Notes under the pieces: model-generated
What the model saw: only the letters and a program-made list of their open reading frames with translations
Databases searched by the model: none
What the model was told of the DNA's origin: nothing
NCBI GenBank assembly: GCA_963668625.2
Contig: CAXXKA010000008.1
Location: forward strand, 512,001-576,000
Source of the DNA: an uncultured candidate division Zixibacteria bacterium
GTDB taxonomy: Bacteria; Zixibacteria; MSB-5A5; UBA10806; 4484-95
Length of the DNA stretch: 64,000 nt
Reading direction: 5' to 3'
Translations under genes and position numbers: made by a program
Part shown: in pieces, positions 42,179 to 46,724 of the stretch
How positions within the stretch are numbered: the stretch's first letter is position 1
Layout: each line of letters begins with the position of its first letter

Positions 42179-42997
42179 ATGGGAAATTTTAAATACGTAA
42201 TCTTTACCGATCTGGACGGCACTCTTCTGGATAAAAAGACATTTCATCCTGGATCGGCGCTAAATACTCTTCAACGATGCTATCAATCAGATATACCCGT
42301 TATATTCGTTTCTGCTAAAACTCGAGTAGAGATAGAGTCGATACGCAGCGAATTAGATAATTTCCACCCGTTCGTCTCGGAAAACGGCGGCGGACTATAT
42401 ATCCCCGATAACTTATTCGATCGACCGGCTGGGTTTTCCCACGTTGGACAATATTGGGTAAGATGTGCCTCGGAGACCATAGCCGAATTGCGGCGGGCGT
42501 TGAAAGAGATTGCCGATGACCTGAGTATCGATATCAGGAATTTCAGTGATATGCATCCGGTCGAGATCGCTGCAATCACCGGTCTCGATCATATCAGGGC
42601 GAAACTTGCAGGACAGCGCGAATTCGATGAGCCTTTTCAAATAGTAGATGAGACTCCGGAGAAGATCGAAGCGGTTATAGCGCAAATCGTCAATCGTGGC
42701 TACCGTCACACCGAGGGCGGGATACTTCATCATATAACAGGTAATTTCAACAAAGGCGAGACGCTCGAGAACCTCAAACATCTATACGAAAATGACAATC
42801 CGAGCGTGAAATTTATCGGGTTGGGGGACGCTTTCAATGATATTCCCATGCTGAAAATCGTAGATCACCCGTTTCTCGTGCGCAAAAATGATGGTAGCGT
42901 TGAGCAAGTGGATGGTCTTGACAAGCTTAAGGTTACCTCGGGTATTGGCCCGGATGGTTTTGTTGAAGCGATTGAGCCGTTTTTGGGGAATAGCTGA
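42179..42997 (+). CDS. Mannosyl/glucosyl-3-phosphoglycerate phosphatase (HAD IIB, MpgP/GpgP)
   Basis: IFTDLDGTLL, SAKT..E, ENGG, REFDEPF, KG, LGDAFNDIPML. Confidence 0.88.
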   Translation: MGNFKYVIFTDLDGTLLDKKTFHPGSALNTLQRCYQSDIPVIFVSAKTRVEIESIRSELDNFHPFVSENGGGLYIPDNLFDRPAGFSHVGQYWVRCASETIAELRRALKEIADDLSIDIRNFSDMHPVEIAAITGLDHIRAKLAGQREFDEPFQIVDETPEKIEAVIAQIVNRGYRHTEGGILHHITGNFNKGETLENLKHLYENDNPSVKFIGLGDAFNDIPMLKIVDHPFLVRKNDGSVEQVDGLDKLKVTSGIGPDGFVEAIEPFLGNS

Positions 42998-43129
42998 TTT
43001 CGATAACTCACGAATAAGCTTCTCGTCACACATTATGTATCATATTTCCCTTTTTTGTTTTGTGATTGATCTTAAAATGTATATACTGACTTATTATATT
43101 GTTAAAAAAGGAGATGGTACGATAAAAGC

Positions 43130-43345
43130 ATCTTGCTAATCTATTCTGTTGGTGTTAGAGCTTCGGTAATGAATTTCTAACTGGAGCGGATAGGTTATAG
43201 GCTGAACTGAATGCTTGAGGCCAGACCTCGTAAAGGAGATTAATCAGACCTGTAACCGAATTGCCACCATAAGGCAAAGACCTTGAATAGGAGTTTGGTA
43301 GGCGCCGACAGAGAGTCTGCTCCAGTGATAACCATAGAATGGAGC
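43130..43345 (+). ncRNA. Predicted IS110 bridge RNA in the left non-coding end
   Basis: Nested stems CTGGAGCGGA/TCTGCTCCAG and GGTTATAGG/CCTGTAACC; two internal-loop hairpins carrying AAAGGAG (43232-43238) and ACCAT + ATAGGAG (43266-43270, 43287-43293); RNA boundaries approximate. Confidence 0.7.
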
Positions 43346-43351
43346 AAGAAG

Positions 43352-44365
43352 ATGAGGTACTTAGGAGTAGACCTTCACACAAACAGTTTGACCGTGTGTT
43401 ACCTGACAGCCGGTGGTCGGGAGAGGATCAAGGAGTATCGGCTAAAGGATCTAAAGGAATTTAAACGAGGATTAAAAAAGACGGATTGTGTAGCGGTTGA
43501 GGCCACTGGCAACACTCGTTATTTCGTTGATGAGATATCGCATTTGGTCAAGCGAGTTGTTGTCGTCGATCCGAACAAATTTGAGATAATCAAATCATCA
43601 GTCAGTAAGACGGATGAAAACGATGCCAGGAACTTAGCCTATTTTATGAGCAAAGACATGTTGCCGAAAGCCCGATTAAAGACGAAAGATAAAGCGCAGA
43701 TCAGTTCACTTGTTGGGACACGGGACAAGCTGGTCAAGTTACGTACAGCTTTGAAGAATAAAATACACAACATACTCAATCATCATGGTATCAAGAGTAA
43801 AAAGGAGGCCTACTCCAGCAACAAGAGTTTGGAGCGGGTTCTAAAGATGAATTTTGATGAGGTTGTTTCTGTTGAGCTTGAGGTATTGGTTGATCAGATT
43901 CGCAGTTTGAATGAGGGGATAAAAAAGCTGGACAAACAGATAGAGGATCAGGGTCGCAAGTTGAACGGGCATAAGAACCTGACCAGCATCAAAGGAATCG
44001 GCAGCAAATCAGCTACAGTGTTGCTTTCGGTAATTGGTGATGTTGCTGATTTTTCGGACAAAGATAAATTGGCCTCATATTTTGGCGTAGTGCCGCGAGT
44101 TTCCAATTCAAACGAGATTCAGCATCATGGTCGGATTACCAAGCGTGGTTCTAAGATTGGTCGGACTACACTGGTGCAGTGTACGCTTGTTGCCATACGA
44201 TATAACCATTACTTGAGTAAATATTACAATCGTATAAAAAACCGTCGTGGCAGCGGTAAGGCTATCATTGCCACAGCCAGAAAATTACTGGGAATAATCT
44301 ATGACACCTTGAAAAATAATTGGGTGTTTGAAGATTTCCCTAACTTTGTGTTAGCAAACAGATAA
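43352..44365 (+). CDS. IS110-family DEDD recombinase/transposase
   Basis: YLGVDLH, VEATG, KTDENDA (RuvC-like DEDD); SIKGIG, LASYFGVVP.VSNSN (Tnp domain), GRITKRG, AIIATARKL; ATG at 43352 after GGAG. Confidence 0.95.
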   Translation: MRYLGVDLHTNSLTVCYLTAGGRERIKEYRLKDLKEFKRGLKKTDCVAVEATGNTRYFVDEISHLVKRVVVVDPNKFEIIKSSVSKTDENDARNLAYFMSKDMLPKARLKTKDKAQISSLVGTRDKLVKLRTALKNKIHNILNHHGIKSKKEAYSSNKSLERVLKMNFDEVVSVELEVLVDQIRSLNEGIKKLDKQIEDQGRKLNGHKNLTSIKGIGSKSATVLLSVIGDVADFSDKDKLASYFGVVPRVSNSNEIQHHGRITKRGSKIGRTTLVQCTLVAIRYNHYLSKYYNRIKNRRGSGKAIIATARKLLGIIYDTLKNNWVFEDFPNFVLANR

Positions 44366-44404
44366 CTGAAATTTGGAGTAGACTTTTATCATAGGAGTAA
44401 AATA

Positions 44405-45922
44405 ATGTCGGAAAAAGCTAAAAACGCGCTCGATGAATTAACCCGGGAAATTAAACAGATCAGCCTACTCGGTTCATGCTCGGCTTTGCTGGGATGGGAT
44501 GAACGTGCTTATATGCCGAGAAACGGCGCAGGTCATCGTGCGGAGCAGCACTCCCTGATAGCTGGGATGGCACATGAAAAATTCACCTCCTCGAAGATCG
44601 GCGATTTGTTGGGTGAAGTGGAAAACAGTGATTTAATCAGCGATCCGTTGTCAATCGCCGCGGTTAATGTTCGTGAAATCAGGCGAGCCTACGATAAAAA
44701 AGTGAAATTACCGAGAGATTTGGTCGAGCAGATCAGTAAAACCACTACGCTTTCGGAACATGCATGGGTGAATGCTCGCAAAAATTCCGATTTCACCGGT
44801 TTCGCGCCCTGGCTTTCCAAAATGATGGACCTTCGCATGCAAGAGGCCGAGGCGGTTGGATATAGTAATGAGCCATACGACGCTCTTCTGGATGATTACG
44901 AGCCGGGCGAGACCGCCGAAAATATCGCGAGCGTATTCGAAAACCTCAGAAAGGATTTGGTACCGTTGGTGGACGCCATAGCCAATGCCCCTAAAAAACC
45001 GGATGTCACCATACTCGAACGTGATTATCCGGTTGATTTGCAGAAGGTATTCGGGAAATCCGCCTCAGCCGCGATCGGTTTCGATTTTAACGGTGGCCGC
45101 CTCGATGTTACCACTCATCCGTTTTGCACCACTATCGGCGTGGGCGATATCAGGATATTGACTCGCTATAATCCCAACCACCTGGGGCAGGCTTTCTTCG
45201 GTACGCTTCACGAAAGCGGCCATGGCCTGTACGAGCAAGGCATGAATCCCGATCATTTCGGTACACCTATGGGAGAGACCATTTCGCTGGGTATACATGA
45301 ATCACAGTCGCGGTTGTGGGAAAATATCGTCGGCCGCTCCCGATCGTTCTGGCAGTATTTCTTCCCCCGTGCTCGCCAGGTCTTCTGGGATTCCTTAAAC
45401 GATGTCAGCCTGGATGATTTCTATTTCGCGGTTAACGATGTTCGTCCGTCTCTGGTGAGGGTCGAGGCCGATGAGGCTACCTACAACCTTCATATACTAA
45501 TCCGGTTCGAAATCGAGCACGCGATATTCAAGAAAGAGCTGAAAATCGAGGATATCCCCGGTATCTGGAACGAGAAATTCAAGAAGTACCTGGGTATCAC
45601 TCCCCCTGATGACGCCAACGGTTGTTTGCAGGATGTCCACTGGGCGGCTGGTTTGATCGGCTATTTCCCTACGTATACGCTGGGAAACCTCTATTCGGCC
45701 CAATTCTTCGCCAAAGCCCAAAAAGACCTTGGCAATCTTGACGAGCAGTTCGCAATGGGCAAATTCGATAGCTTGCTGGGCTGGCTGAGAGAGAATATAC
45801 ACAGCCACGGGCAGAGATACCGGGCGGAGGAGCTGGTTAAAAAAGTCACCGGCGAGCCTCTTTCTCATAGGTACCTGATCGATTATCTTAGGGAAAAATA
45901 TTCCCCTCTTTACGGTATCTAG
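44405..45922 (+). CDS. Carboxypeptidase M32 (Taq family)
   Basis: LLGWD...MP, YDALLDDYEPG, HPF, HESGH (HEXXH), HESQS, RVEADE, QDVHW, GYFPTY.LG. Confidence 0.95.
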   Translation: MSEKAKNALDELTREIKQISLLGSCSALLGWDERAYMPRNGAGHRAEQHSLIAGMAHEKFTSSKIGDLLGEVENSDLISDPLSIAAVNVREIRRAYDKKVKLPRDLVEQISKTTTLSEHAWVNARKNSDFTGFAPWLSKMMDLRMQEAEAVGYSNEPYDALLDDYEPGETAENIASVFENLRKDLVPLVDAIANAPKKPDVTILERDYPVDLQKVFGKSASAAIGFDFNGGRLDVTTHPFCTTIGVGDIRILTRYNPNHLGQAFFGTLHESGHGLYEQGMNPDHFGTPMGETISLGIHESQSRLWENIVGRSRSFWQYFFPRARQVFWDSLNDVSLDDFYFAVNDVRPSLVRVEADEATYNLHILIRFEIEHAIFKKELKIEDIPGIWNEKFKKYLGITPPDDANGCLQDVHWAAGLIGYFPTYTLGNLYSAQFFAKAQKDLGNLDEQFAMGKFDSLLGWLRENIHSHGQRYRAEELVKKVTGEPLSHRYLIDYLREKYSPLYGI

Positions 45923-45975: not shown

Positions 45976-46190
45976 TTGGGAAAAACCGGCCTGAAGGGGG
46001 AAATAAAATCAAAAAAAGTGATGTTTTTTTTATTTTACATGTAATTTTTGTTTGATATTTATAAAATTTATCTCCTATAATTTTCATAAGAGCCGAAAGA
46101 CATATCAGTTATCTCAGCCTGGCGGCTTTAGACCCATGAAAATTGAAGACGTTTTGAATAACTAAACAACATCTAACAAGCGAGGAAAAC

Positions 46191-46724
46191 ATGCCGGCAA
46201 AAAAGAAAGCGGCAAAGAAGAAAGTCGCGAAGAAGAAAACGGCAAAGAAAAAAGTAGCTAAAAAGAAAGTTGCTAAGAAGAAAGTAACCAAGAAAAAAGT
46301 AACTAAGAAGAAAGCTACCAAGAAAAAAGTCGCGAAGAAAAAAGTAGCCAAAAAGAAAGTAACCAAGAAAAAAGCCACTAAGAAAAAAGTAGCCAAAAAG
46401 AAAGTTGCTAAGAAAAAAGTAGCCAAGAAGAAAACAACCAAGAAGAAAGCTACCAAGAAAAAAGCCAAACGTAAACCGAATCCGGCTTTCATGGCTCCCT
46501 GGAATATTTCCGAGACACTGGCCGCGGTCGTTGGAAGCAAGCCGCTTCCGAGAACCGAGATCACCAAGAAGCTATGGGGTTATATCAAGAAGAACAAACT
46601 TCAGGATAAAGTACAGAAGACCATGATCAATGCTGATGATGTTCTGAAAAAAGTATTCGGCGGCAAAGCCAAGGTCAGCATGTTCGAAATGACCAAGCTG
46701 ATTTCCAAGCATCTTTCGAAATAA
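46191..46724 (+). CDS. Histone H1-like Lys-rich repeat protein fused to a SWIB/MDM2 domain
   Basis: About 17 KKK(V/A/T)(A/T) pentapeptides (15-bp tandem repeat), then RKPNPAFM.P...[28 protein letters not shown]...INAD..LKKVFGG...[14 protein letters not shown]. Confidence 0.9.

Follow-up and report, generated by a model that had tools for sequence, protein, structure and literature searches.

How does an insertion sequence come to lie between the Shine-Dalgarno motif of a gene and its start codon, and what directs it there? This arrangement occurs in a stretch of 64,000 nucleotides (nt) from contig CAXXKA010000008.1 of an uncultured candidate division Zixibacteria bacterium, called the window below; all coordinates are positions in it. 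An IS110-family insertion sequence occupies 43114..44397 on the + strand (1284 bp, right-hand AGGAG included), directly upstream of an M32 carboxypeptidase gene, and AGGAG stands on both sides of the element, at 43109-43113 and 44393-44397. An earlier reading of this DNA, made from its letters alone (the sequence-only reading), had proposed a bridge RNA programmed to target Shine-Dalgarno sequences. We found that the element is very probably a recently active IS110-family insertion sequence with a predicted two-loop bridge RNA in its 238-nt left end, and that bases in both loops covary with the DNA they would read. Feature coordinates are collected in Table 1.

The element, its copies and its relatives

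The left end of the element reads ATGGTACG from 43114, and the right end, CATAGGAG, has its last base at 44397. It is followed by TAAAATA and then by the ATG (44405) that starts the Peptidase_M32 gene. A search of the genome (10 contigs, 4.3 Mb) identified 11 copies of at least 99.9% identity, whose flanks differ immediately beyond AAGGAG ... AGGAG. On the left, AAGGAG was present in 11/11 (AAAGGAG in nine copies and TAAGGAG in two). On the right, AGGAG was followed after 5 to 7 nt by an ATG in every copy, and all 11 point the same way as this downstream ATG, which opens an open reading frame (ORF) of at least 116 codons in nine of them. Thus, the regeneration of a downstream Shine-Dalgarno motif by the right end, which had been read from the window copy, holds at each insertion.

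The extent of the element was also visible in assembly graphs from two runs of the same organism, where the repeat is a separate contig running from 43107/8 to 44397 at a depth of 51, compared to about 6 for its flanks (about 8 to 9 times). We then compared the locus with the orthologous carboxypeptidase gene of a same-genus relative, the single orthologous locus compared, which at 76% amino acid identity is not an exact empty allele. Its upstream region reads AAAAAGGAG-AAAAAT-ATG without interruption. GGAG occurs once in this uninterrupted site, versus at both junctions of all 11 copies. The tips of the element carry no terminal inverted repeats, and a short core is common to target and element with no duplication generated, as is characteristic of IS110. 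Because GGAG is common to both, the crossover cannot be placed within those 4 to 5 bases.

The transposase was not found at E values up to 1e-40 in 40 relatives ranging from the same genus to the same class, many of them fragmented assemblies from which repeats are often missing. Taken with the near-identical copies, this negative result suggests that the element arrived and multiplied in this genome recently.

In a comparison of window positions 42950-44550 with wetland metagenome contigs from runs X4 and X5, near-identical pieces of the element were present. A related copy in run X5 (record 21) has different flanks, the right one again with an ATG, 4 nt past GGAG. Apparent joints between the two ends in run X5 contained extra letters between the sides and derive from a related, diverged copy, and we rejected them.

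The IS110 identity given by the sequence-only reading was borne out by the protein. Both IS110 Pfam domains, the N-terminal RuvC-like DEDD domain (PF01548) and the C-terminal Tnp domain (PF02371), scored above the Pfam cut-offs, and the NCBIfam model NF033542 ("IS110 family RNA-guided transposase") gave 242.7 bits against a cut-off of 140. Residues D7, E50, D88, D91, and S253 are conserved in at least 97% of 65 unique clade proteins, and Ser253 sits in a G-x2-P-x4-S motif (G245-x2-P248-x4-S253). Among solved structures, the relatives are the ISCro4 and IS621 transposases only, at E values of about 1e-12; their DEDD and Ser residues align with those of our protein, the catalytic residues described for IS621 being D11, E60, D102, D105, and S241 (PMC11208158). 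The family comprises 4768 clusters at E values up to 1e-30, with few named members ("IS110 family transposase" of Sedimentisphaerales, Phycisphaerae, and Planctomycetota). The closest match on a plasmid of a cultured organism, Tardibacter chloracetimidivorans, is 52.7% identical. The longest antisense ORFs within the element encode 75 and 52 amino acids; there is no long one.

A scan of one genome per species returned 80 related loci at 52 to 64% amino acid identity from at least 15 phyla (81 loci with the window): 32 from Acidobacteriota, 13 from Pseudomonadota, seven each from Omnitrophota and Spirochaetota, three from Planctomycetota, and fewer from the others, including one archaeal bin. 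Left junctions of the form ..GGAG|A(T/C)Gnn A(T/C)G.. could be identified in 72/81, right ends of the form CAT(A/G)GGAG in 70/81, and both in 64/81. Sixty-seven loci extend at least 80 nt downstream, and in 51 of them a start codon 3 to 13 nt past GGAG begins a frame of 60 or more codons. The clustering of insertions upstream of start codons, which the sequence-only reading had set as a check, is therefore seen among homologues. The claim that the element targets Shine-Dalgarno motifs agrees with the position of 11/11 copies and most related loci at AAGGAG just 5' of a start codon.

Several relatives have unusual ends. The archaeal bin (L021, labelled Bathyarchaeota) holds a copy with typical junctions on a 2.8-kb contig, which may reflect either a genuine archaeal host or an error of binning. 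At L025 the terminal 16 bases on the right (..ACAAACATCATAGGAG) are tandemly doubled 5' of the host start codon. In L036-L042, L049, L055, L058, L063, L064, L067, L078, and L081 the stop codon of the transposase is the TAG within the terminal ATAGGAG; only 3 nt lie past the stop, and the frame reaches the tip of the element.

Covariation of the predicted left-end RNA with target and donor DNA

The predicted folding energy of the 238-nt left end is -80.5 kcal/mol (z = -5.15), and none of 200 shuffled sequences was as stable. We aligned 51 of 64 unique left ends, leaving out one with a doubtful boundary and 12 that were near-identical. In this alignment, 91.9% of the cells of the drawn structure are paired, compared to 34 to 47% when the partners are slid by 1 to 3 columns, and 23 of its 38 pairs show compensatory changes on both sides. 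RNAalifold, run on a trimmed 37-row alignment, independently arrived at the same architecture (36 pairs, of which 21 are compensatory). From the trimmed alignment we built a covariance model, R1, which matched 51/55 sources, held-out ones included; the four with no match were L058, L059, L076, and L087. All 11 genome copies scored 133.9 bits (E = 6.6e-33), the element being the sole match in the window, and sequences outside the model scored 153 (L085), 148 (L089), 120 (L012), 94 (L067), and 82 bits (L078). An Rfam scan of 42900-44600 at E values up to 1 matched no family, with only osmY at chance level (E = 0.99).

The predicted structure, supported by this covariation, consists of a closing stem (43183-43190 with 43316-43323) around two loop modules. 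In module 1, a long basal stem is joined to a hypervariable 5' strand of 11 nt, a distal hairpin at 43216-43230, and a 3' strand of 10 nt, U-AAAGGAG-AU. In module 2, the distal hairpin at 43271-43284 stacks immediately on the basal stem (ACCAU with UGGU), and the 3' side has a bulge of 10 nt, A-AUAGGAG-UU. A GGC...GACC motif is common to both distal hairpins. The sequence-only reading had picked out these hairpins as GAGG-CCAGA-CCTC (43217-43229) and AAGG-CAAAGA-CCTT (43271-43284), and both gained support from covariation among homologues. The other letters on which it relied, the AGGAG flanks, AAAGGAG (43232-43238), ATAGGAG (43287-43293), and ACCAT (43266-43270), are all present.

We compared the RNA of each element with its own DNA, using 5000 shuffles. 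For the bases before GGAG, loop 1 agrees with the left flank at position -1 in 50/50 elements, at -2 in 49/50, and at -3 in 41/48 (shuffled mean, 21.7; 0/5000), while position -4 agrees in 10/47, which is not significant. The second base after GGAG in loop 1 agrees with left-end base 2 in 51/51 (U/T in 43 and C/C in eight; 0/5000 shuffles). In loop 2, the base before GGAG agrees with the right end in 46/46 (A in 38 and G in eight; 0/5000 shuffles). The cross-controls (loop 1 against the right end and loop 2 against the left flank) gave no comparable tracking; loop 1 position -2, for example, agrees with the right end in 1/46. We also placed the changes on a tree of 47 transposases, omitting four rows with internal stops. 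For loop 1 position -3, ten independent pairs changed, on average 8.3 in the same direction and 0 in the opposite one (median p, 0.008). Thus, the guide-target covariation and covariance model that the sequence-only reading had called for are both in hand, and its two proposed matches, loop 1 AAAGGAG with the left target flank and loop 2 AUAGGAG with the right end, both covary.

Changes of the guide together with its target are found in nature. Loop 1 reads ACACGGAG where the flank is CCACGGAG (L069 and L075), UAGAGGAG with TAGAGGAG (L030), UUGAGGAG with TGAGGAG (L031), AUUAGGAG with TTAGGAG (L053), and UAAUGGAG with AATGGAG (L081). Four Acidobacteriaceae bins (L069, L075, L077, and L079) have ACACGGAG as loop 1, and their elements are located in CACGGAG repeat arrays, not in ribosome-binding sites. 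This looks like natural retargeting away from the Shine-Dalgarno motif.

Of the two loop 2 segments proposed to match the halves of the circle junction, one was right, ATAGGAG, as described above. ACCAT, which had been assigned to ATGGT at the left end, is the strand of a stem, and the segment that follows the left end is GCCA (43263-43266), also in loop 2. In a mutual-information scan, RNA positions 153 to 150 (43266-43263) were complementary to left-end bases 2 to 5. Pairing is possible at base 2 in 47/51 elements, at base 3 in 51/51, at base 4 in 51/51 (40 Watson-Crick and 11 G-U), and at base 5 in 45/51. All four nucleotides occur at base 4, each time matched by the GCCA segment. We rejected the ACCAU-ATGGT register, because the supposed partner of left-end base 4 is still C in elements where that base is A; the changes in ACCAU instead go with those in the opposite, 3' strand of its stem. 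Taken together, the non-coding left end encodes a predicted structured RNA with loops that covary with target and donor, as is characteristic of IS110.

Motif, start codon, and the weight of the evidence

What confines the insertions to start codons? We removed the element's own junctions and counted 1563 AAGGAG sites in the genome. Shine-Dalgarno context was defined as lying 3 to 13 nt 5' of the start codon of a frame of at least 60 codons; 485 sites (31%) are in such context, 831 are within ORFs of at least 100 amino acids, and 247 are other. An ATG at a spacer of 5 to 7 nt follows 280 of the 1563 sites (17.9%) versus 11/11 insertions (P = 6e-9), and by the ORF criterion the insertions (9/11) also differ from all AAGGAG sites (P = 7.6e-4).

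One explanation for these numbers is that the RNA reads its 7-nt motif anywhere and that the start-codon association arises after insertion, by loss of intragenic copies, as a by-product and not an adaptation. We consider this a serious contender, somewhat short of an even chance. It agrees with the minority of AAGGAG sites that lie in Shine-Dalgarno context and with the relatives whose changed guide (CACGGAG) occupies repeats that do not bind ribosomes (L069, L075, and L077). When the comparison is made with non-genic sites alone, 9/11 insertions do not differ significantly from 485/732 sites (P = 0.23). With intragenic sites excluded, then, the excess at true ribosome-binding sites loses significance; the RNA may thus respond to the motif alone, and most of the association with start codons could stem from the loss of intragenic insertions. 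Against this explanation, an ATG at a spacer of 5 to 7 nt follows 11/11 insertions compared to 49.7% of sites in Shine-Dalgarno context (P = 4.6e-4), T comes right after GGAG in 9/11 compared to 18.6% (P = 1e-5), and the spacers are 91% A/T compared to 65%. These three features go beyond what intragenic loss explains. The guide also stays (A/U/G)AAGGAG in at least 15 phyla although it is able to change. We believe that the RNA specifies only about 7 nt, NNN-GGAG, and that purifying selection against intragenic insertions probably accounts for most of the confinement to true ribosome-binding sites; the element also prefers T and A/T-rich sequence directly 3' of GGAG.

Further results, like the comparison with non-genic sites, weigh against the reading that a bridge RNA directs this element to ribosome-binding sites. 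Two of the 11 copies have downstream ORFs of just 34 and 39 codons. Sixteen of the 67 testable related loci failed the ORF criterion: 11 with an ATG at 4 to 9 nt, three in CACGGAG repeats (L069, L075, and L077), one with the tandem right end (L025), and one with nothing (L087). Neither a circle junction nor an empty allele was found in the assembled contigs of the sequencing runs, and in that search, which covered contigs only, none spanned the element or joined its two ends. On the tree, covariation of the handshake-like base comes down to 2 to 3 independent changes, and that of the loop 2 donor-guide base to one. We found no clean right-target guide. The 5' strand of loop 1 does form longer complementary runs with its own right flank than expected (mean, 4.11 versus 3.50 shuffled; 0/1000), and this signal may reflect shared base composition (A/T content); a position-by-position matrix over 71 sites showed no anti-diagonal and no register. 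The sequence-only reading had itself cautioned that the other strand of loop 1 does not match the right flank. The base after GGAG in loop 2 agrees with the first right-flank base in 17/45 elements (shuffled mean, 14.0; not significant). For the window element, this U agrees with T in 9/11 sites; the other multi-copy families apparently do not follow it. Within the RNA, helices H0 and H1 are both supported yet mutually exclusive. The same GGAG is claimed by a 5' hairpin (43161-43164/43183-43186; 94.4% paired) and by the closing stem (95.1% paired), both with compensatory changes, and the two exclusive helices may be a conformational switch. Finally, copies, junctions, RNA structure, and guide-DNA covariation are shown by the data, and the RNA itself, the strands that pair, the circle, and the order of cleavage are inferred from sequence.

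A second explanation would make the left-end structure a cis-acting leader for translation of the transposase or stability of its transcript, with the GGAG segments as ribosome-binding or anti-Shine-Dalgarno decoys and the protein picking the target. The predicted RNA does hold at least three GGAG/CUCC segments and the exclusive helices just described. We nevertheless regard such a leader as very improbable: loop 1 positions -3 to -1 track the left flank, the loop 2 base before GGAG tracks the right end, GCCA tracks left-end bases 2 to 5 through all four bases, and a leader has no reason to follow flanking host DNA. The layout of two loops with guides beside distal hairpins is also that described for IS110 bridge RNAs (PMC11208160, PMC11208158). 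Least credible is a third explanation, in which both AGGAG are terminal direct repeats of an element that inserts upstream of genes without sequence preference and carries its own ribosome-binding site; AGGAG at both junctions of every copy does mean that the left one cannot be assigned to the host from sequence alone, but the bases left of GGAG vary by site and element and match loop 1, not the right end, the relative's orthologous locus has a single AAGGAG at the same place, and the repeat contig has the extent expected with a shared target motif.

Predicted route of insertion and comparison with known IS110-family elements

For the bridge-RNA reading, we propose the following route. By analogy with IS621, a circle would form, and its joined ends would make a promoter with the -35 box from the right end and the -10 box from the left end. 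Loop 1 would pair through its guide with the target and, once exchange has taken place, with element bases 1 and 2 as well. In loop 2, the right end plus the GGAG core would be bound by the 3' bulge (5'-AUAGGAG) and left-end bases 2 to 5 by GCCA on the 5' side. The DEDD/Ser recombinase would then swap strands inside the shared GGAG. With such geometry, the insertion would fall between Shine-Dalgarno motif and start codon and would in every case have the orientation of the gene. GGAG would stay at both junctions, the host gene would retain a ribosome-binding site, and host transcription would enter the predicted bridge RNA and the transposase gene. A scan found no intrinsic terminator-like site on the + strand within the element, and promoter-like host sites lie at 43060-43100, just 5' of it. 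Host transcription may therefore read through both the predicted bridge RNA and the transposase gene and reach the carboxypeptidase gene, where AGGAG is kept 7 nt before the ATG.

A promoter built by joined ends has been described for the IS110 family. The predicted junction promoter occurs in 47/52 unique elements, with a -35 box, T(T/A)GAC(A/T), at right-end position -19/-20, a spacer of 17 to 18 nt, and a -10 box, (T/C)A(T/C)GA(A/T), at left-end bases 5 to 10. The subterminal repeats of the 52 elements have a longest complementary run of 9 (median; range, 2 to 12), and right-end position -13 and left-end position 13 covary as complements. At the left junction (43107-43125), the host Shine-Dalgarno motif is followed by ATG GTA CGA TAA, and relatives have (A/–)TG... 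with a stop at codon 3 or 4. This tiny frame may be incidental because the same bases form the -10 box and the inverted repeat. The right end at 44375-44382 reads GGAGTAGA, and GAGTAGA is kept about 20 to 35 nt from the end in most relatives. The 5' strand of the closing stem has this same consensus, which is complementary to the stem's 3' strand (UCUGCUCC). The right-end copy might serve as a second partner for pairing in a transcript across the joined ends, or as a protein site.

We compared the element with the IS110 and IS1111 groups by layout and features. With IS621 and ISCro4 it shares the two protein domains and the aligned DEDD and Ser residues, and its RNA likewise precedes the transposase gene, within a long left end, the right end being short (here 238 and 32 nt). 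As in IS621, there are two pseudo-symmetric loop modules, one for target and one for donor, with distal hairpins flanked by guides; the shared core is read by both loops, a 2-nt extension reads the non-cognate partner in the fashion of a handshake guide, and joined ends build a promoter (here predicted). The proteins are distant, at an E value of about 3e-12. In IS621, each loop is ordered as stem, left guide, stem-loop, and right guide plus handshake guide (PMC11208160, PMC11208158). In our element, by contrast, the 3' side of the loops, not the 5' side, holds the long guides with the top-strand sequence of the left half, and the top-strand complement lies on the 5' side. The core here is up to 4 nt (GGAG), compared to CT in IS621; the right-donor guide has 4 nt and excludes the core; no clear right-target guide was found; and the target is a ribosome-binding site in place of a REP element.

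Other features recall the IS1111 type. According to Siddiquee et al. (PMC11187229), the seekRNAs of this type have the top-strand complement 5' of the bottom-strand complement, the opposite of the order in the IS110-type ISEc21. The order of strand-matching segments in our element is the same as in ISEc11, ISKpn4, and ISPa11, as seen for the donor loop (GCCA 5' and AUAGGAG 3'). Subterminal inverted repeats have been described as 2 to 3 bp in the IS110 group and 7 to 17 bp in IS1111, while a long RNA-bearing left end and a short right end belong to the IS110 group (PMC11208160). The median run of 9 nt here differs from the former and falls within the latter range. Unlike IS1111, our element has its RNA upstream, in the long left end, with a right end of only 32 nt, and its transposase is just 26% identical to an ISEc11-family one (PLSDB annotation). 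A few IS1111 relatives with an upstream non-coding region are in print, among them ISMtsp17 (PMC11187229).

Insertion between a Shine-Dalgarno motif and a start codon, as seen here, has precedent in IS900 and IS901, IS110-family elements of Mycobacterium avium (Plague 2010, citing Doran 1997 and Inglis 2003); they too target a translation-initiation region. The targeting of such regions by IS110 members is thus already published, and the idea is less new than the sequence-only reading assumed. The target motif given for IS900, CATGNNNNNNTCTCCTT, is the reverse complement of AAGGAGA-N6-CATG (PMC8141618). Because the motif is given in IS900's own orientation, the IS900 transposase is antisense to the target gene, and an antisense ORF of IS900, hed, is said to use host signals (PMC8141618). 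In contrast, our transposase is co-oriented with the gene in 11/11 copies, there is no long antisense ORF, and a Shine-Dalgarno motif is restored before the host gene. Going by the published description, the IS900 gene is 1200 bp, compared to 1014 bp here.

How can these likenesses be reconciled? With the DNA frame flipped, the geometry would be that of IS621, and the target would then read CAT..N..CTCCTT, resembling the IS900 motif. We tentatively suggest, at somewhat less than even confidence, a third architectural type, with the RNA upstream as in the IS110 group and the guide order and long subterminal repeats of IS1111. It would have the RNA-DNA geometry of IS621 and IS900 and a cargo (RNA plus transposase gene) inverted with respect to the recombination site, in a clade that has adopted the near-universal Shine-Dalgarno motif as its portable landing site. 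If true, this would explain the spread over at least 15 phyla, guaranteed transcription from host promoters, and a low cost to the host, which keeps its ribosome-binding site. It would account as well for the ability of IS900 and IS901 to locate translation-initiation signals, which was described in 1997.

Our results join the old observation of IS110 elements between Shine-Dalgarno and start codon with the 2024 discovery of a bispecific guide RNA. The guide here reads as the ribosome-binding motif itself and changes along with the target in relatives. This landing motif precedes a large share of genes in most bacteria and can offer a mobile element a site that is both transcribed and tolerated, which may be why one clade spans many phyla. 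A literature search turned up no paper linking a bridge RNA or seekRNA guide to the Shine-Dalgarno motif, nor one describing a co-oriented clade across phyla; figures or supplements of Durrant 2024 and Sun 2026 may hold the clade. Durrant 2024 presents six diverse structures and target-motif bins, and of the 86 bridge-RNA models in Sun et al. 2026 (section 2.4), many differ from IS621; that section makes no mention of ribosome-binding sites. For annotation, such elements lie in 5' leaders and separate genes from their promoters. For engineering, a natural bridge RNA with a short, nearly one-sided target specification and a guide order unlike that of IS621 would be useful for learning which RNA features are required, and it might give host-independent insertion of cargo just 5' of coding sequences.

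Table 1. Features of the insertion sequence, its predicted bridge RNA, and the adjoining host gene (positions in the window)
Feature	Position	Strand	Remarks
Left target half, host Shine-Dalgarno AAAGGAG	43107..43113	+	GGAG is the core common to host and element
TACGAT, -10-like hexamer of predicted promoter formed only by joined ends	43118..43123	+	Left-end bases 5-10
Left subterminal inverted repeat, left-end bases 5-15	43118..43128	+	10/11 bases complementary to 44383-44393
H6 5' strand, long-range helix with 43301-43306	43151..43156	+	75.6% of cells paired; 5/6 pairs changed on both sides, e.g., CG:19/UA:15
Structured core of predicted bridge RNA, closing stem around two loop modules	43181..43325	+	R1, RNAalifold, pairing counts
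Loop 1 5' single strand	43205..43215	+	Hypervariable among relatives; possibly a weak right-target guide
Loop 1 distal hairpin UGAGG-CCAGA-CCUCG (H3)	43216..43230	+	100% paired; 4/5 pairs compensatory
Target guide AAAGGAG, loop 1 3' strand	43232..43238	+	Same sense as left target flank plus core; would pair with bottom strand
Handshake-like AU extension	43239..43240	+	Same as first two bases of left end
Right-donor guide GCCA	43263..43266	+	Complementary to left-end bases 5-2 (top strand)
ACCAU, stem H4 5' strand, with 43296-43300	43266..43270	+	Stem covaries; not a DNA guide
Loop 2 distal hairpin AAGG-CAAAGA-CCUU (H5)	43271..43284	+	97.5% paired; 3/4 pairs compensatory
Donor guide AUAGGAG, 10-nt bulge, loop 2 3' strand	43287..43293	+	Same sense as right end plus core
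Transposase (bridge recombinase), 337 aa	43352..44365	+	PF01548 5.7e-13, PF02371 5.4e-22
TAGACT, -35-like hexamer of predicted circle-junction promoter	44379..44384	+	Right end
Right subterminal inverted repeat	44383..44393	+	Complementary to left repeat
Right-end AGGAG	44393..44397	+	Shine-Dalgarno restored 7 nt 5' of host ATG
Host gene, M32 carboxypeptidase	44405..45922	+	PF02074, E 3.4e-186

Downstream of the carboxypeptidase gene, an ORF at 46191-46724 (+) encodes a long lysine-rich run of (V/A/T)(A/T)KKK repeats followed by a globular tail, which may resemble a SWIB-type domain. The opposite strand (46109-46567) holds a mirror ORF of FFL repeats.

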